A DNA stretch of 64,000 bases from Acidimicrobiia bacterium (GCA_035458525.1 DATHZQ010000014.1:2860-66859), one strand, 5' to 3'. Shown: positions 4,267 to 18,351, counted from the first letter of the stretch. Numbers and translations are program-made. The notes: generated from the sequence alone by a model not told the origin.

Positions 4267-4652
4267 CGGCACGTGGCCGCTGTCTGTGCGGTGCCGTGCG
4301 GTACGAAGTGGAAGGGCCGCTGCGGGACGTGATCGACTGCCACTGTGAGCGCTGCCGGCGGCACACGGGACACTTCATGGCTGCCACGGCGACTGCGGCT
4401 GCGGCCGTTGCAATCAGCGGGAAGGGCCTCCGCTGGTACAACCCGACCGAGCGTGTCCAGTACGGCTTCTGTGGCGAGTGCGGATCGACCCTGTTCTGGC
4501 GGGCCTCCGACAGACCGGACACCATCTCGATCGCGGCCGGTACCCTCGACCCACCAACCGGGCTCACGACCACGACGGCGCTGTTCACGGCCGTTGCGAG
4601 TGACTATCACCGCCTGGACGACTCGATCCACCAGTACGACTACGACCACTGA
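4263..4652 (+). CDS. GFA / CENP-V family zinc-binding protein (glutathione-dependent formaldehyde-activating enzyme-like)
   Basis: In-frame GTG 4263 overlaps the upstream stop (GTGA). Cys pattern CLCGAVRYEV...CHCERCRRHTGH...GFCGECGSTLFW. Track ORF 4131..4652 is 5'-extended into the previous gene. Confidence 0.7.
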   Translation: MTARGRCLCGAVRYEVEGPLRDVIDCHCERCRRHTGHFMAATATAAAAVAISGKGLRWYNPTERVQYGFCGECGSTLFWRASDRPDTISIAAGTLDPPTGLTTTTALFTAVASDYHRLDDSIHQYDYDH

Positions 4653-4663
4653 GAGGTTTCCGA

Positions 4664-6118
4664 ATGCTGGACCTGGGACTGTTCATCGACGGCGAGCGGG
4701 TCGACGCCACTTCCGGCGAGACGTTCGACTCGGTCAACCCGGCGACCGGCGAGGTGCTGGCACGGGTGGGGCAGGCGTCGCAGGAGGACGTCGATCGGGC
4801 GGTGGCGTCTGCGGCTGCCGCATTCGTCCGGTGGTCGGCGATGCCTGCGGCACAACGAGCCCGCATCCTGCATCGAGCTGCAGGGATATTGCGGGAACGC
4901 AACGACGAGATTGCCCGCATGGAGGTGCTCGACACCGGCAAGCCGATCAGCGAGGCGATCGGCTACGACGTCGACAATGCCGCAGACACGCTGGAGTTCC
5001 TCGCAGGAGTGGCGCGGACGATTCACGGCGAGCACATGGACTTCGGCGGCTCGTTCTCGTATACGCGGCGGGAGCCGCTCGGGGTTTGTGCGGGCATCGG
5101 GGCGTGGAACTACCCGTTCCAGATCGCCACGTGGAAGTCGGCCCCTGCGCTGGCGTGTGGCAACACGATGATCTTCAAGCCGGCGGAGCTGACACCGGTC
5201 TCTGCGCTGTTGCTGGCCGATGTCTATGCCGAGGCGGGAGTGCCGCCTGGCGTCTTCAACGTGGTGCAGGGCGATCACCGGGTGGGGGAGATGCTCACCC
5301 GTCATCCCGGCATCGCCAAAGTGTCGCTCACCGGTGAGGTCGGCACCGGCAAGAAGGTGATGGCCGCGGCGGCGACCACGCTGAAGGAGGTCACCCTCGA
5401 GTTGGGCGGAAAATCGCCGCTCATCGTGTTCGCCGATGCCGATCTCGACGATGCCGTGTCGGCAGCGCTGCTCGCCAACTTCTACACCCAGGGCGAGGTG
5501 TGCTCCAACGGCACCCGGGTGTTCGTGGAGCGGGCTATCCACGACGAGTTCATGTCGCAGTTGCGCAGCCGGACCGAGAAGATGGTCATCGGCGATCCGC
5601 TCGACCCGGCGACCCACGTCGGCGCCCTCATCTCGCAGGACCATATGGAGAAGGTGCTCGGCTACGTCCAGCTCGGGGTCGAGAGCGGCGCCAACCTCGT
5701 CATCGGCGGGCGACGCGCGGCCGGGGACGGCCTCGACGACGGCTTCTTCGTGGAGCCAGCAGTGTTCGACGGGTGCACCGACGACATGCGGATCGTGCAA
5801 GAGGAGATCTTCGGCCCCGTGATGGCCGTGCTGACATTCGACACCGAGGACGAAGTGGTCACCCGTGCCAACGACACCCACTACGGGTTGGCGGCTGGGC
5901 TGTTCACGAAGGATCTGGCTCGGGCGCATCGCGTGGCTGCGGCCCTCGAAGCGGGCAACGTGTGGATCAACACGTACAACATCACGCCGCCCGAGGTGCC
6001 CTTCGGCGGGTACAAGCAGTCCGGCATCGGCAGGGAGAACAGCGCCGCCGTTGTCGATCACTACACCCAGCGCAAGACCGTCTACGTGGGCATGGAGGGC
6101 ATCGAAAGCCCGTATTGA
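4664..6118 (+). CDS. betB: Betaine aldehyde dehydrogenase
   Basis: 484-aa ALDH with FKPAELTP, VTLELGGKSP, the catalytic-Cys segment QGEVCSNGTRVFV, EEIFGPV, and the tail GGYKQSGIGRENS...YTQRKTVYV. Strong overall resemblance to BetB. Confidence 0.85.
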   Translation: MLDLGLFIDGERVDATSGETFDSVNPATGEVLARVGQASQEDVDRAVASAAAAFVRWSAMPAAQRARILHRAAGILRERNDEIARMEVLDTGKPISEAIGYDVDNAADTLEFLAGVARTIHGEHMDFGGSFSYTRREPLGVCAGIGAWNYPFQIATWKSAPALACGNTMIFKPAELTPVSALLLADVYAEAGVPPGVFNVVQGDHRVGEMLTRHPGIAKVSLTGEVGTGKKVMAAAATTLKEVTLELGGKSPLIVFADADLDDAVSAALLANFYTQGEVCSNGTRVFVERAIHDEFMSQLRSRTEKMVIGDPLDPATHVGALISQDHMEKVLGYVQLGVESGANLVIGGRRAAGDGLDDGFFVEPAVFDGCTDDMRIVQEEIFGPVMAVLTFDTEDEVVTRANDTHYGLAAGLFTKDLARAHRVAAALEAGNVWINTYNITPPEVPFGGYKQSGIGRENSAAVVDHYTQRKTVYVGMEGIESPY

Positions 6119-6137: not shown

Positions 6138-6162
6138 CCTCAACCTCGAGTCAAGGTTGAGG
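6138..6162. terminator. Perfect 9-bp stem / 7-nt loop hairpin between convergent betB and the SIR2 gene (possible bidirectional terminator)
   Basis: CCTCAACCT-cgagtca-AGGTTGAGG read directly. It lies 20 nt after the betB stop and overlaps the last codons and stop of the minus-strand SIR2 gene. There is no clear U-tract. Confidence 0.4.
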
Positions 6163-7072
6163 CGTCGGGCATCGGCGCCTGCTGTTCGTCGAGCCGGCTC
6201 TGGATGCCGGTCACGAACTGGTCGAGATCGCCCCAGAAGACTTCGATGCTCTTCTCACACATGTATTCGGCGAGATAGCCCCGCTGGTTCCGGTCGCTCA
6301 CCGGAAGCTGAACCGAGACGCTGCGTCCGCGCAGCGACGCTTCCATGGCGATGACGAGCGCTTGGAAGATGACCTTGAAATCCCAATCCTTCAAGCCGTA
6401 GCCCATGAACATCAACGACGTCCCGGTCAGGGCTTGTTGGATCATGTCGGGAAGCAGCTGTTTGCGATGCCACGACAGCTCGACGATGAAGGTCAGGTAG
6501 TCGTCCTCGGTGATCACGATCGACTCTGGCCGATCCTGGATACCGTGGAGGTGGTAGACCAGCGGCTCTTCCACGGTGGGCTGGTAGTCAGGGTCATCGA
6601 AACACGAAGGCTCGGCCAGCGCTCTCACCTTGGGGTTCCACCGGCAGTACTCACGATGCGGGCGCTTGCCCTTCGCCTCGAGCGCCTTGGTCATGAAGTC
6701 GTCGTAGTTGGTCGTGAGATAGATCGGGAGATCCAAAGTGGCCAGCAATCCATGCGCCTCGTTGGGCGCGTCGAAGTTGGGAGGTGCGACACCGGAGAAT
6801 CCCTTTGCGATCAACTCTTTCGGGCACTCGGGTCCGTGGCGGATCGAGAGGAACTGGGCGACATCGATGAGATCGAGCTGCTCGTCCTCTCTGTGGTCGT
6901 GGGGGAAGTCGTACTCTTGCGCCCAGCTCCTGGCGAGCTGGCCGCCCGAGGGGAGTGCGCTGGCGATCGACGCGGCGGCCGCACCGATGAACGGTGTGAC
7001 CTTGCCGTTGTGGAGACGGTGCATGAGGTAATCCCATGCAACCTCCGCCATGTCCAATTCAGGAGTTGTCAT
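6140..7072 (-). CDS. Stand-alone SIR2-like protein (SIR2_2 / DHS-like NAD-binding family)
   Basis: Probable start ATG 7072 (MTTPELDMAEVAWDYLMHRL...), 310 aa; the track ORF is extended to 7177. SIR2_2 motifs in order: FIGAAAASIASALPSG, LPIYLTTNYDDFMTKAL, VYHLHG (catalytic His context), IVITEDDY, FMGYGLKDWDFKVIF. Confidence 0.75.
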   Translation of the reverse strand: MTTPELDMAEVAWDYLMHRLHNGKVTPFIGAAAASIASALPSGGQLARSWAQEYDFPHDHREDEQLDLIDVAQFLSIRHGPECPKELIAKGFSGVAPPNFDAPNEAHGLLATLDLPIYLTTNYDDFMTKALEAKGKRPHREYCRWNPKVRALAEPSCFDDPDYQPTVEEPLVYHLHGIQDRPESIVITEDDYLTFIVELSWHRKQLLPDMIQQALTGTSLMFMGYGLKDWDFKVIFQALVIAMEASLRGRSVSVQLPVSDRNQRGYLAEYMCEKSIEVFWGDLDQFVTGIQSRLDEQQAPMPDASTLTRG

Positions 7073-7082
7073 CTCGCCGCCT

Positions 7083-7142
7083 ACCCTACGCACTCGGCTG
7101 CATCGGTGTGGCCCTGCAAGCAGCGGTCTGGATGCGTAGGGT
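7083..7142. promoter_or_regulatory. 10-bp perfect inverted repeat (ACCCTACGCA ... TGCGTAGGGT) in the divergent SIR2 / STAND-operon intergenic region
   Basis: Arms at 7083-7092 and 7133-7142, separated by 40 nt, inside the 148-nt divergent promoter region. Function unknown: operator pair or leader RNA stem. Confidence 0.25.
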
Positions 7143-7220
7143 GGGCTGGAAGAATCTCGGATGCCGGCGGGCCCCATTCCTACTCCCGCTCACGACCCTG
7201 AACCAACCCCCGGAGACAGC

Positions 7221-10200
7221 ATGCGCCGGTTGGAGCGAGCGCCCTCGCGGGCGGCCAGGATTGGCCTGGCTGGTCCGCGTCCGTCACGCTCCTCGTCAGC
7301 CCGCAGGTTCCTCGCAGCCTGCGGTGTCGGGGCGCTCCTGGTTGCCACCATGCCCCTCACTCCGGCGCTGGCGGACGAAGACTTGTGCAGCGGCGAGTAC
7401 GTCGCATCCTTCGGGGATCACCTCACTCGGGGGGTCGGCAGAACAGGCGATGTCGTCGAGCTGGCGGTGGCCATCCCCCCGGGCGTCTATGACGTGACGC
7501 TGGTCTCCTCGGACAACAACCATCCGGAGGCGGACCAGCCGAACGAGTCGTGGGGTGCGTTGCTGTATGCCGACGGCGAGCTGATTGCCGCAACAGGTTT
7601 CTCCGATGACTTGGACGCCGATGACGACATCGCCAGCTTCGATCTCGCTGAGGACGTCGAAGTGCTGTCGACTGTCACCGCCGCACAGGCGACGCTTGCG
7701 CTCGGGGGCTACTCGATCACCGCCGAGTGCGCCGTCTTCGAAGTCATCACCCAATACCGACCGCCCATCACGGAGCCGGACGAGGTCACCACCAACGAGG
7801 ACGAGCCGGTCGCCCACGACGTGCTCGCCAACGACAGCGACCCGGATGAGGAGCTACTCACGGCGCAGATCGTCGAGCAACCGGCCAACGGCACGGCGTG
7901 GGTGGATGACGGCACCGGTGAAGTCGTCTACCAGCCGAACGACGACTTCAACGGTGGTGACTCGCTGCTGTACGAGGCGTGCGATCCCATTCCCATCTGC
8001 ACGGGTCCCGAGCGGCTCGACATCACCGTCTTGCCCGTCCCCGATCCACCCGTTGCGTTCGACGACGATGGGGTGACGGCGGAGGACGTCGCCGTGACCA
8101 TCGACGTCGCGGCCAATGACGTAGACGTCGACGGCGACCTGGACCGCACCAGCGTGAGTCCATCCGATGGCGTCAATGGCCAGACGACGGTGGACGGCGA
8201 CGGCATCGTCACCTATGTGCCGGACCCGGGGTTCGTCGGCGACGACGGCTTCGTGTATCAGATCTGCGACCTGGCAGGAGAGTGCGACTCGGCCGACGTC
8301 GCGGTGACTGTCATCAGCAACGCCCCGCCCGTTGCCGGAGACGACTCCGCCACCGTGATCGAAGATGGCTTGGTCGTGATCGACGTCGTGGCCAACGATG
8401 CCGATCCGGACGGGAACCTGGACCCATCGACCGTCACGCTCGTTGCAGGGCCGGCCGCCGGCACGGTGAGCATCGACGCAGTGTCCGGGGCGCTCACCCT
8501 CGAGCCCGAATCCGATTCGGTCGAGACCCAGACCATGCAGTACTCGGTGTGCGACACGTTCGGTGCGTGCAGCGATCCGGCGACCGTTGTGGTGACGGTC
8601 ACCCCCGTCAACGATGCACCCTCGTTCGTTGCAGACGCCCCTCCGTTGGTTGCGATCAACGCCGGGCCGGTTGTCGTCACCGATTGGGCCACGTTCGATC
8701 CAGGTCCTATGGACGAGGACTGGCAGCGCGCCACGTACGTCGTCGACGTCGCCGACCCCGGGTTGTTCGCCGCAAGCCCGACCGTCGACGCCAACGGCAC
8801 CCTGCGTTTCACACCCGGCGGCGTCGAGGGCAGCACCGAGATGACGGTCCTTGTCAGCGACGACGGCGGGACGGATGACAACGGCGTCGATACCTCGCCT
8901 CCGAGCACCTTCACGATCTTCATCGGCAACGGTCTTCCGAATGCCGTCAACGATGCGTTCGTCACCGACGAGGACGTACCGGTGACGATCAATGTCGCCG
9001 CCAATGACGGCGATCCGGACGGGGATGTGTTGCAGTTCTCCCTCGTCAGCGCTCCCAGCCTCGCCAAAGCGTTCGATCTGGCGGCCGACGGCCTACTGGT
9101 CTACGAGCCGCTCGACAACGAGTTCGGCACCGACACGCTGATCTACGAGGCGTGCGACCCGGGTGGCCTCTGCGACGAGGCGGAGGTCACCATCTCGATC
9201 GTCGAGGTGAACGATCGGCCGGTGGCGCAATCCGACAAGCGAGACGACGTGCTCGAAGACGGCGCGGTCGAGATCGCAGTGCTGGACAACGACTCCGATG
9301 TCGATGGTGAGGAGCTCCGGGCGGTGCTCGGGCTGGAGATGGCCAACCTTCCTCAGGGCGAAGACCATGGATTCGATCCCGCCGACCTCGGGTCGGTCCG
9401 TGTCACCGATGCCGGGACCATCGCGTACGTCCCGCCCCCCGACTCGTACGGCACGCAGACCTTCACCTACCACGCATGCGATCCGCGCGGCCTGTGCGAT
9501 CCGGCGACCGTCACGGTTGACGTCGCCCCGGTCAACGATGCCCCCAGCTTCAGCGCCTCGAACCCGCCGGCAATCAGCCCGGATGCAGGTAGGCAGACGA
9601 TCGCCGGTTGGGCGTCGTTCACCCGAGGCCCTTCGAACGAGCAGGACCAGTCGGTGTCGTTCGTCGTGACGAACGTGAGTGATCCACGACTGTTCGACGC
9701 ATTGCCGGCTGTCACCGCCGCCGGCGAACTCAGCTATACGCCTTCGGGAGTTGCCGGGTCCTCCACCTTCACCGTGGTGGCACGAGACGACGGTGGAACG
9801 GCGAACGGCGGTCGGGACCGTAGCTCGCCGGGCACATTCGAGATCAGCGTCCGTGAGCGGCCCGACAATTCGCCGCCGACCGTGCGCAGCGACGTCGCAA
9901 GGACAGAGATCGGTGGGACGGTCGCCGTCGATGTACTGCAGAACGACGACGATCCGGATGGCGACCGCATCTTCGTGGACGCCGCCTTTGCCGCTGAGCA
10001 TGGCTCGGTGGAGGTTCTCGCCAACGGCTTCGTCGGCTATACGCCGGCTGCGGGGTACTACGGCGCAGACTCGTTCTCGTACCGTGTGTGCGACGACGGG
10101 AATCCGGTCCGATGCGCCGTTGGCATCGTCCGCGTGACGGTCGAGGCGGACCCCGCCGACCTCGTCGATGTCGCCCTGAATCTCGCCGGACCGGATCCGC

Positions 10201-13100
10201 AGGCGATCCAGGTCGGCCACTTCGCCCGGCTGGTCCTGGTCGTATCGAACGAAGGTCCCGCCATCGCCTCCGGTGTTGTGGTTGAGATCGGGCTGCCCGA
10301 CGGAGCCGCCGTTCTCGCCGGCAACGCCCAGTGGTCGGTGCCCGCCCTGGAACCGGGCGATGAGGCGACGAAAGTCCTGCTCGTCAGGGGAGAAGTGCCG
10401 GCGCTGGTCGGCGTCGTGGCAGAGGTCGTCGAGTCTGACTTGCCCGATGCCGACTCGTCCCCGGCCGACGGTGGCGGGGACGACTACGCAACTGCTTCCA
10501 TCCTGGTGAACGCAGTTCCGCTGGACGCAGTCGGCGCGGTTTTCGTCGTCGACGAGAACCGGAACTCGATGCCCGATGCCTGGGAGGTCCCACCGGCCGA
10601 CGAGTCAGGCTTCGTCGTGACGGTGACCCGTGACGTCCCCGCCGAGTCCGCCGAACCGTTCGCGGTAGCACGTGGCGCCGGTCCGGGCGGGGGCCAACCG
10701 GGTCTCGGGCTTGGACCGGTGCTCGCGCCCTCGCTGTCTCTGATGTTCCAAGACCGAGATTGCGCTCCCGGCAGCGACGGCGCTTGGGTGTGCCGAGGAG
10801 GAGCCTTTGTGCTCGGCGCCGGCGCCGGCTGGTACACGATGACGGTATCCGACCCTGCGGACCTGGGGTACAGGCTCGTGAGCCCCGCCGGGCCCGGCCA
10901 GCCGTACCGCGTCCGCGCCGGGGGCACGGTGGTCTTCCTGCTAGCGCCGCTGAGCCAAGATCCGGGACCACTCCCGCAAGGCATCGAGGGCACGGTGCGG
11001 CAGCTGACGACCAACGGTGAGTCCGTCGCAGTCGAGGGCCGCCGCGTGATTGCGAGGGAGCAGTCGACCGGCAGGATGGGCGACGATGACGTCACGGATC
11101 GGCAGGGCACATACCGGCTCGACCTTCCGCCCGGGACGTGGGAGGTCTCCATTCCGGGCGAAGACGTGGTCGAACCCGCCGCCGAGGCCTGGGTGGTGGA
11201 GCTGCCCCCCAACGAGACGGCAAAGGGGATCGATTTCGGCTTGGCAGTCGAAAGGGCAACCAACCCAGTTCCCGGTTCGCTCACCGTGATCGTGTGGAAA
11301 CGCAGTGCTGATGACTCGAGTGCGAGTGTGAGCCCCGAGTGCGGCGGAGATTTCGATGTCCTCGAAGGTGTCCAGGTGCAGGTGCTTGCGCCCGACGGCA
11401 CACTCCTGGCAAGGAGGACGGACGGCACTGGTTGCGCCATCTTCTCGAACCTCGGTCCCGGCACCTACACGGTTGCGCTGACTGATGAGGGCGTGGGCGC
11501 AGCGCTGCTGCCGGCCGATCGGGAACCCGAAGAGGTCGAGATCCTGCCGGACTCCAATACGAAACACGACATCCCGCTCCAAGCGGGAGAGACGGGCATC
11601 TTCGATCCAGAACCGCCAATCGAGGAGAACTCACCGTTCCCATGGTGGATCCTGCTCTTGATTGTTGCCGCAGTCGGCCTTCTCTGGTGGTGGGGCTCGC
11701 GCAGTCCGCCAGGGGCGAAGCCCTTCCCGCCCCCGCCGGTCGGACACGAGAAAGCGCCCTATCCCGGCCCGCAGTCGTTCACCACGGCCGACCCGCGGTT
11801 CTTCGGTCGTGACAACGAGGTTCGGCGCCTCGTCGCCATGACCTACGCCAACAGGGTGACCGTGTTGTTCGGCCCGTCCGGGGCGGGCAAGACGTCGCTG
11901 CTCCTCGCCGGCTATTTCCCCGCACTCGACGTCGATGACTTCGACGTGTATGACATCGTCCGCTTCCGCGCCGACGAGCCGCGCCGCGGCGGCGGTGCCG
12001 GCAACCCTTTCATCCGAACGGCGCTGGCCACGTGGGCGGGCGAGGAGGGGGTTCCCGACGGGATGACGTTCCGGGATTGGTTCGCAACTCGGGAGCGCAG
12101 GTACGACGAGCTCGGCGATCCCCTTGCACGGGTCCTCGTCTTCGACCAGTTCGAGCAGATGTTCACGCCCTATCCGGAGCGGTGGGAGCAACGGCAGGAG
12201 TTCTTCCGGGAACTCGAGGCGTACTTGGCGCAGGACGATCTCGACCGGATTGTGATCTCGATCCAGGAAGCGCAGCTCGGCGAGCTGGAACCGCTGCTCG
12301 ATCTCCTCGATCTGCACTCCCGGACGCAATTCCGGCTCAATCCGCTCGAGGCGGATGAGGCGGTTGCGGCGCTCGTGCGTCCGCTCGCCAACACAGGGGT
12401 CCGATTCGCGGAAGGCCTGCCGGAGCGGATTGCGACCGACCTCAGGAGAGTTCCGGTCGAGGACGCCGGTCTCGGACCGCAGCCATTGGGGCAGTTCGTC
12501 GATCCCCTACGACTGCAGTTGGTTGCGCTCGCCGCTTGGCGTCGCCGGGGGCGGGCCCGAATGATCGAGACCCAGGAAGTACGCACCTGGACCGGTACAG
12601 AGCAAGCCCTCACCGACTTCTACGACGAAGCCGTGCTTCGAGCCGCTGGAGAAGGTATCGACGAGGGCGAGCTCCGCCGGTGGATCGAGGTCCATCTGAT
12701 CACGTCGGTGGGTGCTCGGTCGCGGGCGTCGTCAGAAGACCTCGCCGGCCTGCCAGAGGCTGCGATCAGGGAGCTCGAACAGAGCGGTCTGATTGTCAGA
12801 GCGCACGGACCAGGAGGTGAGAGCTTCCTCCTCGCGCACGACAGGTTCATCGCTCCGATTCTCGTGGGTAACGAGGCGCATCGCGACAAGCGGCTGGTGG
12901 ATCTGTCCACGAGCCTCCTCACCAGAGCGGCGGCGACGTGGGTGCGCAGCGGGCGCTCCCACGAGTTCCTGCTCAGTGGCGACGAACTCGAGGATGCGAA
13001 GAGTCTGGCGCGGGACCATCCGGAACTCATCCGCGGCACGCAGCGGGCGTTCCTCGAAGAGAGCGAGGCTGCGGCCGCAGCGGGCTCTACGGCGAGCTGA
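7221..13100 (+). CDS. Giant membrane protein: signal peptide, cadherin-like repeat array, DUF11-like and Cna-B/CarboxypepD_reg-like domains, one TM helix, C-terminal cytoplasmic STAND-type P-loop NTPase
   Basis: - Single open frame of 5.9 kb. Start ATG 7221 after GGAGA; ATG 7161 is an alternative.
- Signal peptide ...FLAACGVGALLVATMPLTPALA.
- Six ~95-aa repeats carrying ANDSDPD / ANDVDVDGD / ANDADPDGN / ANDGDPDGD / DNDSDVDGE / QNDDDPDGD and a CDxxxxC loop.
- TM helix WWILLLIVAAVGLLWWWG (11643-11696).
- Then PYPGPQSFTTADPRFFGRDNEV, Walker A GPSGAGKTS (11871-11897) and Walker B VLVFDQFEQMF (12132-12164).
- Helical / winged-helix-like tail. Confidence 0.8.
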   Translation: MRRLERAPSRAARIGLAGPRPSRSSSARRFLAACGVGALLVATMPLTPALADEDLCSGEYVASFGDHLTRGVGRTGDVVELAVAIPPGVYDVTLVSSDNNHPEADQPNESWGALLYADGELIAATGFSDDLDADDDIASFDLAEDVEVLSTVTAAQATLALGGYSITAECAVFEVITQYRPPITEPDEVTTNEDEPVAHDVLANDSDPDEELLTAQIVEQPANGTAWVDDGTGEVVYQPNDDFNGGDSLLYEACDPIPICTGPERLDITVLPVPDPPVAFDDDGVTAEDVAVTIDVAANDVDVDGDLDRTSVSPSDGVNGQTTVDGDGIVTYVPDPGFVGDDGFVYQICDLAGECDSADVAVTVISNAPPVAGDDSATVIEDGLVVIDVVANDADPDGNLDPSTVTLVAGPAAGTVSIDAVSGALTLEPESDSVETQTMQYSVCDTFGACSDPATVVVTVTPVNDAPSFVADAPPLVAINAGPVVVTDWATFDPGPMDEDWQRATYVVDVADPGLFAASPTVDANGTLRFTPGGVEGSTEMTVLVSDDGGTDDNGVDTSPPSTFTIFIGNGLPNAVNDAFVTDEDVPVTINVAANDGDPDGDVLQFSLVSAPSLAKAFDLAADGLLVYEPLDNEFGTDTLIYEACDPGGLCDEAEVTISIVEVNDRPVAQSDKRDDVLEDGAVEIAVLDNDSDVDGEELRAVLGLEMANLPQGEDHGFDPADLGSVRVTDAGTIAYVPPPDSYGTQTFTYHACDPRGLCDPATVTVDVAPVNDAPSFSASNPPAISPDAGRQTIAGWASFTRGPSNEQDQSVSFVVTNVSDPRLFDALPAVTAAGELSYTPSGVAGSSTFTVVARDDGGTANGGRDRSSPGTFEISVRERPDNSPPTVRSDVARTEIGGTVAVDVLQNDDDPDGDRIFVDAAFAAEHGSVEVLANGFVGYTPAAGYYGADSFSYRVCDDGNPVRCAVGIVRVTVEADPADLVDVALNLAGPDPQAIQVGHFARLVLVVSNEGPAIASGVVVEIGLPDGAAVLAGNAQWSVPALEPGDEATKVLLVRGEVPALVGVVAEVVESDLPDADSSPADGGGDDYATASILVNAVPLDAVGAVFVVDENRNSMPDAWEVPPADESGFVVTVTRDVPAESAEPFAVARGAGPGGGQPGLGLGPVLAPSLSLMFQDRDCAPGSDGAWVCRGGAFVLGAGAGWYTMTVSDPADLGYRLVSPAGPGQPYRVRAGGTVVFLLAPLSQDPGPLPQGIEGTVRQLTTNGESVAVEGRRVIAREQSTGRMGDDDVTDRQGTYRLDLPPGTWEVSIPGEDVVEPAAEAWVVELPPNETAKGIDFGLAVERATNPVPGSLTVIVWKRSADDSSASVSPECGGDFDVLEGVQVQVLAPDGTLLARRTDGTGCAIFSNLGPGTYTVALTDEGVGAALLPADREPEEVEILPDSNTKHDIPLQAGETGIFDPEPPIEENSPFPWWILLLIVAAVGLLWWWGSRSPPGAKPFPPPPVGHEKAPYPGPQSFTTADPRFFGRDNEVRRLVAMTYANRVTVLFGPSGAGKTSLLLAGYFPALDVDDFDVYDIVRFRADEPRRGGGAGNPFIRTALATWAGEEGVPDGMTFRDWFATRERRYDELGDPLARVLVFDQFEQMFTPYPERWEQRQEFFRELEAYLAQDDLDRIVISIQEAQLGELEPLLDLLDLHSRTQFRLNPLEADEAVAALVRPLANTGVRFAEGLPERIATDLRRVPVEDAGLGPQPLGQFVDPLRLQLVALAAWRRRGRARMIETQEVRTWTGTEQALTDFYDEAVLRAAGEGIDEGELRRWIEVHLITSVGARSRASSEDLAGLPEAAIRELEQSGLIVRAHGPGGESFLLAHDRFIAPILVGNEAHRDKRLVDLSTSLLTRAAATWVRSGRSHEFLLSGDELEDAKSLARDHPELIRGTQRAFLEESEAAAAAGSTAS
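8607..8924 (+). repeat. Intragenic protein module copy 1 (VNDAPSF... ~106 aa) inside the giant gene
   Basis: VNDAPSFVADAPPLVAINAGPVVVTDWATFDPGP...LFAASPTVDANGTLRFTPGGVEGSTEMTVLVSDDGGTDDNGVDTSPPSTFTIFI. Clearly paralogous to 9531-9851. Confidence 0.6.
9531..9851 (+). repeat. Intragenic protein module copy 2 (VNDAPSF... ~107 aa) inside the giant gene
   Basis: VNDAPSFSASNPPAISPDAGRQTIAGWASFTRGP...LFDALPAVTAAGELSYTPSGVAGSSTFTVVARDDGGTANGGRDRSSPGTFEISV. Same order of conserved positions as copy 1. Confidence 0.6.
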
Positions 13101-13141
13101 CGGGCCCCGCACTCTTCGGCCCGGCTGCGTCGCTGCGTAGT

Positions 13142-13753
13142 ATGCCGCTCATGGACACCCCAGAGCGTCGGGTCGTCGTCGACAGCAAGAAGCGCATCTT
13201 CAAGGACTTCTTCTGGATCGAAGAGGCGTTCGTCCGCTACGAACGATTCGACGGCCAGATGTCCGAATCCGTGAGGCGGCTCAGCTTCGAGCGGGGCGAC
13301 GCCGCCGCCGCCGTCATCGAGGAGCGGGAGACCGGCGACGTCCTCCTGGTCGAGCAGTTTCGTTACCCGACGTTCGGGAAGGGCCCCGGCTGGCTGGTCG
13401 AGACCGTTGCCGGCATCGTCGAGGACGGCGAGGACCCCGAGGTGACGGTCCGCCGTGAGGTCCTCGAGGAGACAGGATTTCAGGTGCGCGACGTCGAGCT
13501 GATCGCCACCTTCTACCCGTCCCCGGGCGGGTCTTCGGAGCGCATCTTTCTCTATCACGTCGAAGTGAGTGCCTCCGACCGTGTTGCCGAGGGGGGCGGC
13601 GTCGGCGACGAGCACGAGGACATCCGCCTGGTGCGGATAGCCCGGAACGATCTCGCTGAGGCAATCACGTCGCAGCGCTTCTCGGACGCCAAGACGATCA
13701 TCGGCCTGCAGTGGCTGCTGAGCAGGCCGCCGAGCGGCAGCTCGTACTGGTGA
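13142..13753 (+). CDS. NUDIX hydrolase, ADP-ribose / NDP-sugar pyrophosphatase-like
   Basis: Start ATG 13142, 41 nt after the giant gene stop; track ORF 12938.. is 5'-extended. Intact Nudix box GIVEDGEDPEVTVRREVLEETGF (13412-13480). The N-terminal beta region (FKDFFWIEEAFVRYERFDG) is typical of NudF/NudK-type enzymes. Confidence 0.85.
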   Translation: MPLMDTPERRVVVDSKKRIFKDFFWIEEAFVRYERFDGQMSESVRRLSFERGDAAAAVIEERETGDVLLVEQFRYPTFGKGPGWLVETVAGIVEDGEDPEVTVRREVLEETGFQVRDVELIATFYPSPGGSSERIFLYHVEVSASDRVAEGGGVGDEHEDIRLVRIARNDLAEAITSQRFSDAKTIIGLQWLLSRPPSGSSYW

Positions 13754-13789
13754 CTGCCGGGGACCCCCACCGAGCGGAGTGAGAGAACG

Positions 13790-15187
13790 ATGGCGAGCCC
13801 TAAGCAGCGGTCATGTTTCGTCGTGATGCCCTTCGGCACCAAGCGCATCCATGCGGCGGCTTCGACCGGCGGCAAGAAGAGGTCGAGCACGAAGAAAGGC
13901 AAAGGAGCGCAACGCTCGGGCAGGACCGCGGCGGGTCAAGATGCGAGCCCGCTGTGGCGGCTCATCGTGCCCGAAGGCGAGGACCGGGAGCAGTACGAGA
14001 TCGACTTCGACCGCCTGTACGAGGAAGTCATCAAACCGGCGGTCACGAGCGTTCCGGGCTACGAGATCGATTGCCGCCGCTGCGACGAGATCCCGTACAC
14101 CGGTTGGATCCACGAGAAGATGATCGAGGCAATCGCAGGTGACGACATCGCCGTCGTCGAACTGACCACCCTCAACCCCAATGTCTTCTACGAGCTCGGC
14201 GTGCGCCACGCACTCAATCGGGGCGTCACGGTGCTGATCCAGCAGAAAGGCCTCGGCGAGAGCATCCCCTTCAACCTCGGCGGCATGTCGGTCGTCCAGT
14301 ACGACCCCGACGATCCGGCGGCCGCCATGGATGAGATTCGCCAGACGATCAGCTCCAGCCTCGCCAGACGAGGCCACGTCGACAGCCTCGTGTTTCGCAC
14401 ACTGGACGATCTCGAAGTTGCGGTGAACCGACCCAAGCCCCTTCATGAGACCGAGACGTTCCGCTACCGACTCGCCGCGGCGCCGGACCGCACGATCGGT
14501 GTCATGACAGGGGACATCGCCAACGTTCACGGTGTCGACGTGTGGGTGAGCTCCGAGAACACCGAGATGATGATGGCCCGTTACCACGAGCGCGCCATCT
14601 CGGCCACGATCCGATACATGGGAGCCGGCAAGAGTTCTGCGAACGCCATCCTGGAGGACACGATCGCCGACGAACTCCTGGTGGCTCTCGGAAAAGCAAG
14701 CAGCGTCCCGGCCGGCACGGTCGTCGTCACCGGTTCCGGCGAGCTGGCGAACACGAACGGTGTCAAGTGGATCTTCCACGCCGCCTCTGTCGTCGGTCAG
14801 ATCGGCAGCGGCTACTCCTCGATCGCCAACCCTTCGGCGTGTGTGGTGAACGCCCTGAAGATGACCGACACCGCTGCGTTCAAGGAGCGCCACGCCGAGA
14901 AGTATGGCGAGTTGCCGGTCCGCTCGATGATCTTTCCCCTGATCGGAACGGGGCAGGCCGGCGGCGACCCCGAGGATGCGTTTGCCGGGCTGGTTCAGGT
15001 GGCGATGGAGTACCTCAAACGCACACCGGACACGACGATCGAGTGCGTCTACTTCCTGGCGTTCACCGACGCCGACCGCGACGTCTGCAAGCGTGTGCTC
15101 GAGTTCTTTCCGAGCCTCGAGCCAGTCGAGGACGAGGAGCCGGGCGGCGGGACAGAGACGGGAGCTCCGGCGGCACCGATGTCCTAG
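13790..15187 (+). CDS. Fusion protein: N-terminal nucleoside 2-deoxyribosyltransferase-like (TIR-related flavodoxin fold) domain and C-terminal Macro domain
   Basis: The N-terminal part reads CFVVMPFG, then a basic insert, then IDFDRLYEEVIKPAV...IAGDDIAVVELTTLNPNVFYELGVRHALNRGVTVLI. The C-terminal part reads IGVMTGDIANVHGVDVWVSSENTEMMMA...GTVVVTGSGELANTNGVKWIFHAASV...IFPLIGTGQAGG, the Macro-type GDI...N... motif and Gly-rich loops. The gene starts 36 nt after the NUDIX stop. Confidence 0.7.
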   Translation: MASPKQRSCFVVMPFGTKRIHAAASTGGKKRSSTKKGKGAQRSGRTAAGQDASPLWRLIVPEGEDREQYEIDFDRLYEEVIKPAVTSVPGYEIDCRRCDEIPYTGWIHEKMIEAIAGDDIAVVELTTLNPNVFYELGVRHALNRGVTVLIQQKGLGESIPFNLGGMSVVQYDPDDPAAAMDEIRQTISSSLARRGHVDSLVFRTLDDLEVAVNRPKPLHETETFRYRLAAAPDRTIGVMTGDIANVHGVDVWVSSENTEMMMARYHERAISATIRYMGAGKSSANAILEDTIADELLVALGKASSVPAGTVVVTGSGELANTNGVKWIFHAASVVGQIGSGYSSIANPSACVVNALKMTDTAAFKERHAEKYGELPVRSMIFPLIGTGQAGGDPEDAFAGLVQVAMEYLKRTPDTTIECVYFLAFTDADRDVCKRVLEFFPSLEPVEDEEPGGGTETGAPAAPMS

Positions 15188-15218
15188 ACGGCAGAGTCTC
15201 GGCCGGCAGCGGCGTGTC

Positions 15219-15770
15219 CTACTGCGAGTATCTCGACTCCCCGAGCACCCGCCTGACCATCGGTTCGAAGAACTCGAGGGGCTCGCTGTCGTAGTCGGGG
15301 TCGAAGGAGACTTGGTCGTAGTCGGCGCAGAAGCGGGCGGTGTCGTCATACCACTCGTGACCGAGGAAGCGGTCCCGGGCGTTGCGGTCTCCCCCGAGGT
15401 GGTGGCTGTAGTAGTAGCCCTGGAACACACCGTGGTGCTTGATGATCCAGTAGACCCGCTCGCTCACGTAGGGACGGAGCACGGCAGCGGCGACTTCGCT
15501 GTGATTCGCCGGGCCGAGGACGTCGCCGACATCGTGCAGCAGTGCCGCAACCACCATCTCCTCGTCCTCGCCGGCGCGGACCGCACGGGTCGCCGACTGC
15601 AGCGAGTGCTCGTACCGGGTTACGGCATAGGGGCTCGGCGCATCCATCTCGCGCAGCCAGCCGAGGATGCGATCGGGAAAGGCGGCAATCTCCGCCGCCT
15701 CGTCCGCGGCGAGAAGCTCGTAGTCCTCTTTGGTGCCCTCGTCCATCCGGGTGAAGCTCACCTGCTGCAT
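15219..15770 (-). CDS. HD-domain protein, PhnZ/TmpB/MIOX-like subgroup
   Basis: Real start ATG 15770 with GGAGG 6 nt upstream (MQQVSFTRMDEGTKEDYELL...), 183 aa. HD signature AALLHDVGDVL plus downstream His residues (IIKHHGVFQGYYYSHHLG). Confidence 0.7.
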   Translation of the reverse strand: MQQVSFTRMDEGTKEDYELLAADEAAEIAAFPDRILGWLREMDAPSPYAVTRYEHSLQSATRAVRAGEDEEMVVAALLHDVGDVLGPANHSEVAAAVLRPYVSERVYWIIKHHGVFQGYYYSHHLGGDRNARDRFLGHEWYDDTARFCADYDQVSFDPDYDSEPLEFFEPMVRRVLGESRYSQ

Positions 15771-15942
15771 TGCAATCCTCCGGGTTGCTACCTCGCGACG
15801 ATGGTGCCGTTCCCTGTGCACGATCGCAACCGACATACCCCGACGCGGCACGCCCACCGAACGTATACTCCCCTCCGTTCCGCTGAGTGAATCGTTCCAC
15901 TCTGCGGAACGGTCGTCCTGGATCCGTCGGGGAGGAGCGAGC

Positions 15943-18351
15943 GTGCGAGAAGAGGCGCGGTGCGTCATCGTCGGCGGTGGCGCCATGGGGGTGGGGCTGC
16001 TCTACCACCTGGCCCACGAGGGCTGGACCGACACGATCCTGGTCGAGAAGGACGAATTGACCTCAGGGTCCACGTGGCACGCCGCAGGTCTGGTGCCGCA
16101 CTTCATCGGCAGCCTCAACACCGCCAAGGTTCACGCGTACGCGTCGGAGCTCTACGAGAAGCTCGAAGCCGAGACCGGCCTGCACACCGGCTGGCACGGC
16201 TGCGGCGCGGTGCGCCTCGCAAGAACGCCCGACGAAGTCGACTGGTTTCGCTACGTCCACGGCATCCTGCAACTCGTCGGCGTCGAATCGCACCTCGTCG
16301 GTCACGGCGAGATCAACGAGCTGCACCCGTTGCTCGACCTGGACGGCGTCGCCATGGGGCTTCACACCCCCGGTGACGGATGGACCGACCCGACGGCCGC
16401 GACGAACGCGATGGCCGCCGGAGCCCGCCAGCTCGGCGCCGAGGTCTCGCGCCACAATCGCGTGCTCGACATGAACCAGTTGCCGGACAAGCGCTGGGAG
16501 GTCATCACGGAGAAGGGCCGCATCGTCGCCGAGCACGTCGTCAACGCCGCCGGCAGCTACGGCCCGCAGCTCGGCGCCATGGTCGGGCTGGACGTGCCGA
16601 TCGCCAACGTGATCCATCAGTACATCGTCACCGAGGCGATCCCCGAGGTGGCGGCGCTCTCGACCGAGCTTCCCGTCGTGCGGGATCCGCGGGCGTCGTG
16701 TTACTACCGCCAGGAGCACGACGGCCTCATCATCGGGCCGTACGAGACCGAGGGCTCGAAGCCGTACGCTCTCGACGGCATCGACTGGGATCTCACCTTT
16801 CACCTCACCCCGCCCGAGATCGAGCGACTGCTGCCCTGGCTCGAGCTCGCCGGTCAGCGCATACCCGCGTTCCAGGAGGCCGGGATCAAGAAGGTCGTGA
16901 GCGGGCCGATCACCCACACGCCGGACGCCGGCTACCTCATGGGTCCGGCGCCCGGGCTGCAGAACTACTGGATGTGTGTCGGTGCTTCCATCGGCGTCAC
17001 TCAGGGCCCCGGGGCCGGGAAGTACCTCGCTCAGTGGATGGTGCACGGCCAAACCGAGATCAACGTCCACGAGATGGACCCGCGCCGCTTCGGTGACTAC
17101 GCCCCGGGCGACTACACGCTCGCCAAGTCGCTGGACGAATACCACGAGATGTACCAGGTGCGGATGCCGGGGGAGTACCGCGCCGCAGGGCGTCCGCTGC
17201 GGCAGACGCCGCTGTACGACACGCTCGATGCCAAGGGTGCCCAGTGGCAGGAGGTCTACGGCTGGGAGCGGGTGCAGTACTTCTCGCCAGACGGGTCGCC
17301 GGAGGTGTACTCATTCCGCCGCGGTTCGGCCTTCGAGCCAGTCGGCGAGGAAGTACGGGCCGTGCGCGACCGGGTCGGTGTCGCCGACCTGACGGCGTTC
17401 TCCAAGTACCAGGTGACGGGTGCGGGGGCGGCGGCGTTGCTCGACCGGCTCGCCGCCAACCGGCTTCCGGCCCGGGACGGTGGCATCCGGCTCGTGCACA
17501 TGCTGACGGAGAAGGGTGGCATCGAGTCGGAGCTGACCATCACCCGCCTCGGTGCGGACCGGTTCTACTTGAACAGCGCCATCGTGGCCGAGCAGCACGA
17601 TCTCGACTGGATGCAGTTCGCCGGTGGCGCCGACGTGAAGATCGACGACGTCACCAACGAGATGGGCATCCTCGCCGTGACGGGTCCGCGAGCTCGCGAC
17701 GTCCTCGCCGGTCTCGCCGATGCCGACCTGTCCAACGAGGCGTTTCGCTGGCTGACGGGGCAGGAGATCACGGTGGCCGGTGTGCCCTGCATCGCACTGC
17801 GCGTGTCCTACGTGGGGGAGCTGGGGTGGGAGCTCCACCATCCGCTCGACCGCATGCTCGGTCTCTATACCGCGATCCAGGAGGCGGGTGAGCCCCACGG
17901 CCTCGTCGACTTCGGCAGCCGGGCGATGAACGTCATGCGCATCGAGAAGGGGTACAAGGCCTGGGGCAACGAGCTCACCACCGAGATCACCCCGGTCGAG
18001 GCGGGCATCGAGCGCTTCGTCGACTACGGCAAGGACTTCGTGGGCAAGGCAGCAACTCTGGACCGCAAGGGCGAGCCGCTGCAGTGGATGTGCGTCTACG
18101 GCGAGCTCGATGCGGCCGACGCCGACTGCCGTGGCAACGAGCCGGTGTACGCCGGTGACACGCTGATGGGGATCACGACCAGCGGCGCCTACGGCCACTC
18201 CGTCGGCAAGAGCCTCTTCTTCGCATACGTAGCGCCCGAGCACGCCACCCCCGGCTCCACGTTCGCGATCCGCGTGATGGACGAAGCCCGCACCGGCACC
18301 GTCCTCGCCGAAGCGGCATGGGATCCGCGCAACGAGAGGCTCCGGGTCTGA
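15943..18351 (+). CDS. Dimethylglycine/sarcosine oxidase- or dehydrogenase-like FAD enzyme fused to a GcvT-type tetrahydrofolate-binding domain (paralogue 1)
   Basis: GTG 15943 preceded by GGAGGAG (VREEARCVIVGGGAMGVGLLYHLA... DAO fold). C-terminal aminomethyltransferase-like part (FSKYQVTGAGAAALLDRLAANRLP...[13 protein letters not shown]). About 802 aa. Confidence 0.85.
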   Translation: MREEARCVIVGGGAMGVGLLYHLAHEGWTDTILVEKDELTSGSTWHAAGLVPHFIGSLNTAKVHAYASELYEKLEAETGLHTGWHGCGAVRLARTPDEVDWFRYVHGILQLVGVESHLVGHGEINELHPLLDLDGVAMGLHTPGDGWTDPTAATNAMAAGARQLGAEVSRHNRVLDMNQLPDKRWEVITEKGRIVAEHVVNAAGSYGPQLGAMVGLDVPIANVIHQYIVTEAIPEVAALSTELPVVRDPRASCYYRQEHDGLIIGPYETEGSKPYALDGIDWDLTFHLTPPEIERLLPWLELAGQRIPAFQEAGIKKVVSGPITHTPDAGYLMGPAPGLQNYWMCVGASIGVTQGPGAGKYLAQWMVHGQTEINVHEMDPRRFGDYAPGDYTLAKSLDEYHEMYQVRMPGEYRAAGRPLRQTPLYDTLDAKGAQWQEVYGWERVQYFSPDGSPEVYSFRRGSAFEPVGEEVRAVRDRVGVADLTAFSKYQVTGAGAAALLDRLAANRLPARDGGIRLVHMLTEKGGIESELTITRLGADRFYLNSAIVAEQHDLDWMQFAGGADVKIDDVTNEMGILAVTGPRARDVLAGLADADLSNEAFRWLTGQEITVAGVPCIALRVSYVGELGWELHHPLDRMLGLYTAIQEAGEPHGLVDFGSRAMNVMRIEKGYKAWGNELTTEITPVEAGIERFVDYGKDFVGKAATLDRKGEPLQWMCVYGELDAADADCRGNEPVYAGDTLMGITTSGAYGHSVGKSLFFAYVAPEHATPGSTFAIRVMDEARTGTVLAEAAWDPRNERLRV

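Follow-up and report, generated by a model that had tools for sequence, protein, structure and literature searches.

A possible composite NAD+/ADP-ribose relay locus combining a SIR2 and membrane-anchored nSTAND1 module with a NUDIX and X-Macro module

Genes for a SIR2 protein, a membrane-bound STAND NTPase, a NUDIX hydrolase and a Macro domain protein stand side by side at positions 6140-15187 of a 64,000-nucleotide (nt) stretch of DNA from an Acidimicrobiia bacterium (GCA_035458525.1 DATHZQ010000014.1:2860-66859), hereafter the window. Do these four genes form one system, and what would such a system do with nicotinamide adenine dinucleotide (NAD+) and ADP-ribose (ADPR)? An earlier note on this DNA had proposed a single undescribed conflict locus. 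Because all four parts are found together again in unrelated bacteria, the locus probably represents an unnamed NAD+/ADP-ribose conflict system. It is built of two modules, of which module A comprises SIR2 and the membrane-anchored nSTAND1 protein, and module B comprises the NUDIX hydrolase and a protein with an N-terminal domain, here termed X, ahead of the Macro domain (X-Macro); the link between modules A and B is real but facultative. Our tentative reading, for which we would claim somewhat less than an even chance, is that the two modules make up a composite NAD+/ADP-ribose conflict (defence-type) relay system.

Genes 2 to 4 are co-oriented with spacers of 41 and 36 nt, and the SIR2 gene lies on the opposite strand across a 148-nt divergent region; these distances, given before, were reproduced from the coordinates of the open reading frames (ORFs). 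The genes and the parts of their products are as follows.

6140-7072, minus strand: SIR2 gene, 310 residues
6701-6715, minus strand: TTNYD motif of SIR2
6542-6556, minus strand: YHLHG motif of SIR2
7221-13100, plus strand: membrane STAND gene (gene 2), 1959 residues
7221-7373, plus strand: putative signal peptide, residues 1-51 (RRFLAACGVGALLVATMPLTPALA|DE), hydrophobic at residues 30-48, with an ALA-DE motif; the cleavage site is predicted from the sequence
7374-11636, plus strand: extracytoplasmic region, presumed sensor (Pfam)
11637-11693, plus strand: transmembrane helix FPWWILLLIVAAVGLLWWW, residues 1473-1491 (hydropathy)
11757-12962, plus strand: nSTAND1 NTPase domain (PF20703, 8e-34)
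11871-11897, plus strand: Walker A motif GPSGAGKTS, intact
12138-12158, plus strand: Walker B motif VFDQFEQ, intact
13142-13753, plus strand: NUDIX gene (gene 3)
13412-13480, plus strand: Nudix box, residues 91-113, GX5EX7REVXEEXGF, intact
13790-15187, plus strand: X-Macro gene (gene 4), 465 residues
13802-14404, plus strand: X domain, nucleoside deoxyribosyltransferase (NDT)/DrHyd fold (Foldseek, invariant residues)
14456-15124, plus strand: Macro domain (PF01661, Foldseek and PDB profile matches)

The stand-alone SIR2_2 protein is the predicted NAD+-consuming enzyme of module A. It matches Pfam SIR2_2 (PF13289) with an E value of 2.5e-25 and 89.7 bits (cut-off 24.5), and the SIR2 part of the PADLOC ThsA models at 5.5e-19, in agreement with its previous assignment to SIR2_2. 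N122 and D124 of the TTNYD motif and H176 of the YHLHG motif are kept in at least 93% of 115 homologues; we take N122 and H176 to be the equivalents of ThsA N112 and H152. The family to which it belongs consists of stand-alone proteins of ~290 residues with ~900 matches. Neither the SIR2 nor the STAND protein has an NCBIfam match.

The product of gene 2 combines a signal peptide, an ectodomain of ~1420 residues, a transmembrane helix placed N-terminal to the NTPase and ~45 residues after the NTPase; position 7221 is its best start, with a GGAGA Shine-Dalgarno sequence upstream. The ectodomain parts are a conserved N-terminal domain, six Big_9/cadherin-like units with DxDxDG-type motifs, and DUF11/CARDB-like, CarboxypepD_reg and SdrD_B-like segments. 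Pfam matched Big_9 in six stretches (5.9e-104) together with Cadherin_4/5, CarboxypepD_reg exceeded the gathering cut-off, and DUF11 and SdrD_B were weak matches below it; the ectodomain coding DNA carries diverged internal repeats (D1/D2). Because acidic residues precede the transmembrane helix and SR..K follows it, the positive-inside rule places the C-terminus in the cytoplasm, and we predict a single-pass receptor with the ectodomain outside and nSTAND1 in the cytoplasm. The nSTAND1 match reaches 118.3 bits against a cut-off of 27.1, and G74, G76, K77, T78, D162 and E165 (numbering of the cytoplasmic fragment) are kept in at least 90% of 119 homologues. An ectodomain, transmembrane helix and STAND NTPase had been called here before, and the PF20703 match, the signal peptide, the helix at residues 1473-1491 and the intact Walker motifs uphold that call. 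No PADLOC family matched gene 2 at E <= 0.01.

The domain order of gene 2 is rare. A phmmer search of 1.84 billion representatives returned 19,471 nSTAND1 relatives, and the permuted order, with a long ectodomain, a transmembrane helix and a C-terminal NTPase, was found in only 4 of the top 150 (P0364, P0369, P0373 and P0422); the ectodomains of these four have DUF11, SdrD_B or CarboxypepD_reg, and P0364 is 50% identical to gene 2. The window protein itself is absent from the protein catalogue as an exact sequence. The ectodomain repeats seem to break assemblies, and this receptor class is therefore probably under-represented in protein catalogues. The gene 2 homologue of locus L087 (2-601, minus strand), from a second metagenome-assembled genome, enters a long (PD)n repeat at the contig end.

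Gene 3 is, by its profile matches, an ADP-ribose/NDP-sugar pyrophosphatase of the YffH/AdpP subfamily. It matches NUDIX PF00293 at 4.7e-18 and TIGR00052 (YffH/AdpP) at 125.9 bits (cut-off 79.55), which, with the intact Nudix box, agrees with the earlier call of an ADPR/NDP-sugar pyrophosphatase-like hydrolase. Similarity to the E. coli ADP-ribose pyrophosphatase (1g0s, 1.6e-30) extends over the full length. Gene 3 differs from E. coli NudF/YffH-AdpP in falling below the NudF equivalog cut-off (NF008003, 124.3 versus 248 bits) and in being tied genetically to a Macro protein.

Gene 4 matches Macro PF01661 at 26.2 bits (cut-off 22). In an AlphaFold2 model made with 30 homologues (predicted local distance difference test score, pLDDT, 82), the C-terminal half resembled macroH2A, Af1521 and MacroD-type folds by Foldseek (2e-10, target-normalised TM score ~0.8). 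The family consensus reads VNSENTxMxMAR at the site of the MacroD catalytic motif, NAAN...GGGVD, and the GTG phosphate loop is kept. The Macro domain is predicted to bind or process an ADP-ribose-containing ligand.

The N-terminal X domain is visible through its fold. Residues 1-215 of gene 4 had no Pfam match at E <= 10, Nuc_deoxyrib_tr (PF05014) included, bar an irrelevant DUF5319 (0.15). Modelled alone (pLDDT 80), X was nearest by Foldseek to DNPH1/Rcl (DNPH1 8rpt, 5.4e-4) and the CMP N-glycosidases MilB/BcmB (MilB 4ohr, 8.5e-4), then to TIR domains (MyD88, TIR-STING, SARM1), with E values of 5e-4 to 1e-2, probability 1.0 and target-normalised TM scores of 0.6-0.65. Weak DNPH1/Rcl profile matches (E 0.5-1) fall in the same segment. 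X also has a weak match to the PADLOC 'Effector TIR' model (6e-6), which the fold resolves to NDT/DrHyd. Because the matches go to DNPH1, MilB and BcmB and then to TIR domains, the description of gene 4 as an NDT-like, TIR-related domain joined to a Macro domain is right on moderate evidence for X, with PF01661 above its cut-off. Glu135 (14192-14194), in the motif NPNVFYELGVRHAL (YELG), is invariant in 30 X-Macro sequences and in 51 sequences of the X-TPR-S type described below, and may be the equivalent of the DNPH1 nucleophile (GVGYELG). Residues 20-64 (13847-13981) form an insert of ~45 residues inside the first beta-alpha unit, which is rich in K, R, S and G and disordered (pLDDT <50); it is lineage-specific, and in the 30-sequence alignment only the closest relatives, P0002 and P0004, have one, shorter than that of the window. 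A phage origin or counter-defence role of X-Macro is unsupported, as IMG/VR has only X-domain-only matches and plasmids only X-TPR-S.

Given these parts, how far does each module extend beyond the window? Module A is widespread, with the usual order SIR2, nSTAND1, transmembrane helix and WD40, TPR or Ig repeats, and the window is a rare permuted form of it. SIR2 homologues were sampled for context, and five had enough flanking DNA. Four of the five (L090, L092-94, L095 and L096-98) have nSTAND1 directly downstream of SIR2, overlapping or nearly so, and NUDIX and Macro are absent from these four loci. The fifth, L087, has a SIR2 that is 60% identical, and its divergent neighbour begins with a gene 2-like signal peptide and N-terminal domain before the contig breaks. 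SIR2 also flanks nSTAND1 genes in L004, L011 and L180, and the two genes are closely paired. Directly after the NTPase, a strong transmembrane helix is present in ~100 of the 120 closest relatives of the window NTPase and, ahead of WD40, TPR or Ig repeats, in all five SIR2-linked nSTAND1 proteins checked; the STAND-SIR2 pair is thus typically membrane-bound. The earlier note had set the membrane STAND protein apart, which stands for the rare ectodomain-helix-NTPase order but not for membrane anchoring, the rule in this nSTAND1 clade. Locus L180 (11-10664) carries a permuted ectodomain-helix-nSTAND1 protein of 1695 residues flanked by CHAT, DUF7379, a 468-residue SIR2_2 protein and Trypsin_2, without module B, and is a peptidase-rich variant of module A.

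Module B is likewise common on its own. The gene 4 family has more than 1000 homologues of ~390 residues, dispersed at 40-56% identity through Chloroflexota, Acidobacteriota, Cyanobacteria, Proteobacteria, Bacteroidota, Nitrospirota and others. Two unbiased scans gathered 160 loci without regard to SIR2, 29 of them X-Macro loci; in 12 of these, the gene immediately upstream of X-Macro is a NUDIX homologue. Macro without X occurs in 17 further loci, 14 of which have a NUDIX domain, mostly fused to Macro, and P0072 is a NUDIX-X-Macro triple fusion. The adjacency and the fusions therefore indicate a tight functional pair that needs neither SIR2 nor STAND. Module B stands mostly amid housekeeping genes, such as recR (four Anaerolineales loci), terC, ppk, msrA and transporters. 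At L085 (8248-14791), a NUDIX and X-Macro pair lies near a TPR-S protein, a patatin phospholipase and a DUF4062 protein.

The two modules meet in six known composite loci, the window included, within contexts that were sampled and are no census. They are directly adjacent in the window, in a soil metagenome contig (L004), where FRG-TPR, NUDIX, X-Macro and SIR2 genes are followed by an nSTAND1 fragment cut by a transposase, and in Variovorax (L011), where nSTAND1-TM-TPR (TM, transmembrane helix) and SIR2 are divergent from the NUDIX and X-Macro genes. In Accumulibacter (L013) a SIR2-CHAT fusion comes after NUDIX and X-Macro, and in L104 this place is taken by a SIR2 gene cut by the contig end. 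The sixth locus, L179, was found from the STAND gene: the closest gene 2 homologue, an ectodomain-TM-nSTAND1 protein of 50% identity, is followed by a TIR-Macro gene, NUDIX (5e-61) and SIR2 (3.5e-69). The TIR-Macro protein (4111-5415, minus strand; 434 residues) carries a homologue of the gene 4 Macro domain (1.9e-23) and, in place of X, a true TIR domain with an SxWVxxE catalytic Glu motif; this architecture has no mention in the Thoeris literature covered. Since L179 holds all parts, the four components recur with order and strand shuffled and with X displaced by TIR. The L179 swap is as expected if X and TIR are interchangeable effector heads.

The association also appears in the scans. SIR2 matches were found in three of the 160 loci, all three among the 29 X-Macro loci, with the SIR2 gene right next to X-Macro (hypergeometric p = 0.005), and no SIR2 match was found in the other 131 scanned loci (1.57 Mb). 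The co-localisation of homologues in unrelated genomes that the earlier note had proposed to look for was thus found in L004, L011, L013 and L104 and above all in L179. Its picture of one four-gene locus holds in that the parts recur together, but not in that the two modules are usually apart, 26 of the 29 X-Macro loci being without SIR2. Around the composite genes of L004, an FRG-TPR protein stands ahead of the locus and TIR-STING, S1/P1 nuclease and ThsB-like TIR genes lie nearby (7179-9089 and 14362-17833). FRG is a domain of the ADP-ribosyltransferase superfamily and is NAD+-related. With FRG-TPR, TIR-STING, S1/P1 nuclease and ThsB-like TIR genes so near, L004 is a defence island.

What does the X domain do elsewhere? 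Without Macro, X stands at the N-terminus of many proteins that otherwise consist of TPR-S/MAP3K_TRAF_bd (PF20308/PF13281), here called X-TPR-S. Burroughs et al. 2015 (NAR) are said to be the probable source of the definitions of TPR-S and DrHyd. The X core motif common to 51 X-TPR-S proteins consists of F10, P14, G16, G105, N129, N131, VFYELGxRH, P160-F161, Y171 and D198-S199. Among 122 ORFs flanking X-TPR-S genes the commonest were patatin (12), TIR_2 (8, plus ThsB_TIR 2), TPR-S, pYEATS and DUF4231, and on the Pseudomonas plasmid pA7J1 an annotated 'TRAFs-binding domain-containing protein' is followed by a 'TIR domain-containing protein'. The type VIII Thoeris effector ThsI is described as a 'CMP hydrolase' with TPR, the TPR being that predicted by Aravind and colleagues, and is activated by canonical cyclic ADP-ribose (bioRxiv 10.64898/2025.12.03.692087). 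By this description, and not by sequence, we infer that X-TPR-S proteins correspond to ThsI. Since X is shared with TIR-linked X-TPR-S proteins that match the description of ThsI, X is thus an effector head in defence controlled by ADPR signals. A few kilobases from X-only (mostly X-TPR-S) genes, nSTAND1-like genes occur in 5 of 114 loci (L078 13789-15705, L081 9933-12698, L173 3014-5794, L164 14639-17167 and L065 2-3472), a hint of further X-STAND links.

The likeness to Thoeris extends to architecture. Fold models describe X-Macro as a putative ligand-sensing domain joined to an effector domain, as in Thoeris effectors. The type II Thoeris effector joins Macro to a transmembrane segment, Macro being the ligand sensor that senses His-ADPR. 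Like it, and like the SIR2-SLOG fusion ThsA and TIR-STING, gene 4 and the TIR-Macro protein of L179 join an effector head to a domain predicted to bind ADPR derivatives. In contrast to type II Thoeris, the head of gene 4 is a predicted NDT/DrHyd-type glycosidase and not a membrane pore, its Macro domain is macroH2A/Af1521-like by fold, there is no ThsB, and a dedicated NUDIX partner is present. Gene 4 shares with ThsI the X core motif of X-TPR-S proteins, which adjoin TIR genes, but its sensor part is Macro rather than TPR-S and no TIR gene is found in the window. No gene in 6140-15986 has a TIR Pfam match. Because the window lacks a ThsB TIR, the locus is not Thoeris; it reuses a Thoeris-type effector head and sensor domain. 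The contrast with Thoeris previously drawn is thus sound as to the missing ThsB TIR, although the relation is closer than it implied, with X in TIR-linked X-TPR-S proteins and the TIR swap in L179.

Taken together, a working model for the locus emerges. Established at the level of sequence are a membrane receptor-like STAND protein whose constant partner is a SIR2_2 protein, and a Macro protein genetically coupled to an ADP-ribose pyrophosphatase; the head of this Macro protein, DrHyd or TIR, is apparently interchangeable and retains its putative catalytic Glu. In the relay that we tentatively favour, an extracytoplasmic cue, presumably phage or another invader, would switch or oligomerise nSTAND1, which would in turn activate the separately encoded SIR2 to cleave NAD+. 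The Macro domain may act as sensor, binding an ADP-ribose-type product of SIR2, and once ligand-bound it would gate the X N-glycosidase (DrHyd/TIR-class), which may destroy NAD+ or nucleotides and so would heighten the response until growth stops or the cell dies. The same ligand would be hydrolysed by the NUDIX enzyme, which would thereby set the activation threshold and reset the system. The mechanism sketched in the earlier note, with STAND licensing NAD+ cleavage, Macro as reader and NUDIX as reset, is plausible in the light of these data. By analogy with the SIR2-SLOG ThsA, Macro-TM type II Thoeris, TIR-STING and ThsI, this is the reading that would give every part a role; the adjacency in 12 of 29 loci, the fusions and the triple fusion P0072 suggest that NUDIX and Macro act on one ligand. 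More specifically, a sirtuin, in place of a TIR domain or a cyclase, could make the second messenger, so that an outside-reading STAND would signal through SIR2 and an ADPR-type product to a Macro-X effector, with NUDIX clearing the messenger; we regard this specific form as possible though unlikely. If true, the locus would hold a transmembrane NLR-like (nucleotide-binding leucine-rich-repeat-like) bacterial immune receptor that feeds an ADPR relay, and stand-alone NUDIX and X-Macro cassettes would be general 'ADPR surge' detectors.

Several observations weigh against the relay. Module B is missing from most SIR2-nSTAND1 pairs and clearly works without module A; a SIR2 or TIR gene is absent nearby from 26 of the 29 X-Macro loci, many of which lie amid housekeeping genes (recR, terC, ppk, msrA). 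NUDIX-Macro fusions without an X or TIR head are more in keeping with a purely catabolic role than with a gated effector, and Macro could be an enzyme, because many of its invariant polar residues are kept. The fold match of X to NDT is moderate only (E 5e-4 to 1e-2), and since WD40 and TPR repeats after a transmembrane helix would be unusual as extracytoplasmic domains, the topology of the relatives that carry them is not certain. The main rival turns the catabolic points to account: SIR2 would be the sole effector, and NUDIX and X-Macro a catabolic line that makes NAD+ depletion irreversible, with Macro trimming ADPR derivatives to ADPR, NUDIX converting ADPR to AMP and ribose-5-phosphate, and X serving as a nucleotide/NAD+ N-glycosidase. 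Such a line would, for example, deny ADPR to phage NAD+ reconstitution pathways; phage NARP1 is reported to recycle ADP-ribose (PMC13464706). Enzymes of one pathway are often fused, as NUDIX-Macro and NUDIX-X-Macro are; gene 3 falls in the ADP-ribose pyrophosphatase subfamily, the nearest folds to X are the nucleotide N-glycosidases DNPH1, MilB and BcmB, and module B is found alone amid metabolic genes. Set against this are the X-to-TIR swap in L179 and the X head of TIR-linked X-TPR-S proteins, both of which point to a regulated effector, and a patchy spread across phyla at 40-45% identity that is atypical of core catabolism. Product clearance hence accounts for the NUDIX-Macro fusions and housekeeping contexts better than the relay, and for the X/TIR swap worse; we consider it unlikely, yet serious.

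Could the two modules be neighbours by chance or island clustering, a SIR2 and membrane nSTAND1 pair beside a NUDIX and X-Macro housekeeping pair? Each module is far commoner alone, the window SIR2 is on the opposite strand, the window flanks are ordinary metabolism, and L004 sits in a defence island, where unrelated systems cluster. Yet the adjacency recurs in at least 5 further loci of different lineages, gene orders and SIR2 subclades, the other 131 scanned loci gave no SIR2 match in 1.57 Mb, the L179 search began at STAND and still arrived at NUDIX, a homologous Macro fusion and SIR2, and genes 2-4 of the window share one orientation and are separated by 41 and 36 nt; we judge an absence of any functional link to be distinctly improbable. 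A linked antidote seems slightly more improbable still. Here SIR2 would be an ADP-ribosyltransferase or a leaky NADase, with Macro (as ADP-ribosyl hydrolase) and NUDIX protecting uninduced cells after the models of SirTM-Macro or DarT-DarG pairs. Sirtuin-Macro pairing is known to form a type II toxin-antitoxin-like system (PMC9503650; also PMC4518038), and several SIR2 subclades, SIR2-CHAT among them, have each gained module B. An antidote, however, leaves the conserved and apparently catalytically intact X/TIR head without a role; most SIR2-nSTAND1 pairs have neither Macro nor NUDIX, most X-Macro genes are without SIR2, and the sirtuin is of the SIR2_2 defence NADase type and not SirTM. Both the antidote and the chance association are less likely than either the relay or product clearance. 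The trigger, finally, need not be phage: the ectodomain could sense cell-cell contact, surface attachment or envelope damage, and the output could be tuned NAD+/ADPR metabolism or kin-selective death in a multicellular or aggregating bacterium. The adhesin-like ectodomain (Big_9, cadherin-like, DUF11, SdrD_B) is in line with this, as are the definition of nSTAND1 in conflict systems enriched in multicellular prokaryotes (PMC8195603, PMC10907252) and the joining of the same receptor type to CHAT and trypsin peptidases in L180. The data, however, equally allow phage sensing at the envelope, and each of the SIR2_2, TIR and X-type domains has been documented in systems that act against phages; a role outside anti-phage defence is, in our estimate, as remote as the antidote.

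How, then, does the locus stand to the systems already named? PADLOC gave no system-level match: the STAND protein had none, and the other genes had single-domain matches only. Literature searches, whose coverage left out Burroughs et al. 2015 (NAR), found no named NUDIX, Macro, SIR2 and STAND system, so that the view of the earlier note that the combination matches no named system has been sustained. The nearest relatives among STAND systems are Avs5 (AVAST type 5) and other STAND proteins (Avs, bNACHT), which, like the window locus, link a STAND NTPase with intact motifs to a NADase of the SIR2_2 type; the sensor region varies, among relatives of the window gene between WD40, TPR and Ig. In contrast to Avs5, the window SIR2 is not fused at the N-terminus but is a separate, divergently transcribed gene; the NTPase belongs to nSTAND1 (PF20703) and has no match to the Avs models of PADLOC-DB; the STAND protein has a membrane anchor, and its presumed sensor lies outside the cell and N-terminal to the NTPase, whereas Avs5 is soluble with a C-terminal sensor; and NUDIX and X-Macro genes are added. 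With an unfused SIR2, another NTPase family, a STAND protein that is not soluble and no PADLOC match, the locus is not Avs5. The nSTAND1 conflict systems of Kaur et al. 2021 (eLife, PMC8195603) share the NTPase family and the pairing of a variable effector with a variable sensor, but the forms described in the accessible portion of that paper have effector-associated domains (EADs) or fused effectors and FGS or lectin sensors, and that portion makes no mention of SIR2 in trans, a transmembrane anchor, the permuted ectodomain-TM-NTPase order or NUDIX/Macro partners.

SirTM-Macro operons and DarT-DarG likewise pair an NAD+-using enzyme genetically with a Macro domain. The window sirtuin, in contrast, is SIR2_2 only and not class M, and the X head, NUDIX and STAND are extra. 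No GcvH-L or LplA2 gene lies by the window locus, whose neighbours are aldehyde dehydrogenase and dimethylglycine dehydrogenase (DMGDH)/MttB-type genes; identity with a SirTM-Macro operon is ruled out by the SIR2_2 sirtuin and the lack of GcvH-L/LplA2. The building blocks and the logic of the locus are thus familiar; what is unfamiliar is their combination, together with the outside-facing STAND and the add-on that handles ADPR. The locus is a variant of STAND/NADase and Thoeris-like systems.

To our knowledge, every bacterial STAND/NLR-like defence protein characterised so far is soluble and detects phage proteins inside the cytoplasm. A large nSTAND1 clade that is membrane-anchored, with a sub-clade bearing huge adhesin-like ectodomains, makes sensing at the envelope or outside by an NLR-like switch testable. 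The repeated recruitment, next to SIR2, of an ADP-ribose pyrophosphatase and a putatively Macro-gated glycosidase/TIR head would point to ADPR, or a close derivative, as a relay signal with a built-in threshold enzyme; alternatively, defence NADases would carry a product-destroying add-on that counters phage NAD+ reconstitution. Either would add a new layer to NAD+-centred immunity. Context is also provided for more than 1000 uncharacterised 'macro domain-containing proteins', whose N-terminal domain is linked to a type VIII Thoeris-like effector head.

The locus is bordered by metabolic genes. GC3-guided gene calling (GC at third codon positions) with Pfam identified enolase-superfamily, 3-hydroxyisobutyrate-dehydrogenase-like and aldehyde dehydrogenase genes on the left, the last ending at 6118, and, from ~15.9 kilobases on the right, two DAO-GCV_T (dimethylglycine-dehydrogenase-like) genes and an MttB-family gene. 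Near-identical aldehyde dehydrogenase and DMGDH genes (P0362, P0506) occur on a contig of 4.16 Mb. Between gene 4 and the right flank lies one further gene:

15219-15770, minus strand: HD-domain gene, 183 residues, convergent on gene 4 across a 31-nt gap

The best matches of the HD protein are weak and go to PhnZ/TmpB-type HD oxygenases of phosphonate breakdown. As a fifth member of the locus it was rejected: in related loci, homologues occur only in copies of the same contig, and it borders the DMGDH/MttB metabolic genes. It probably belongs with the neighbouring betaine/methylamine genes, outside the conflict locus. An antisense ORF at 13555-13902 (minus strand) with high GC3 was treated as a shadow of the sense genes. 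A search for mobile-element borders found no tRNA, no flanking direct or inverted repeats and no tandem repeats. The DNA, which corresponds to a contig of the metagenome-assembled genome GCA_041555635.1, has a GC content of ~66%, only slightly lower at the two ends; a promoter and terminator scan of this 66% GC DNA was uninformative, with 0 promoters and terminator-like sites at background level.

Two observations concern the wider window. The sole match of an Rfam scan was PYLIS_3 (pyrrolysine insertion sequence) at 19401-19500 (plus strand), outside the locus, with 62 bits and above the gathering score; it falls inside an MttB-family gene (18438-19916) whose frame is uninterrupted, with no in-frame TAG, and which looks like a non-pyrrolysine MttB homologue resembling the element. 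Further on, 22502-24403 (minus strand) encodes a 633-residue protein that matches MATCAP (microtubule-associated tyrosine carboxypeptidase, formerly DUF1704) at 1.3e-88; this gene, a bacterial homologue of a eukaryotic tubulin-processing enzyme family, adjoins a glutathione-synthetase/RimK-like gene.

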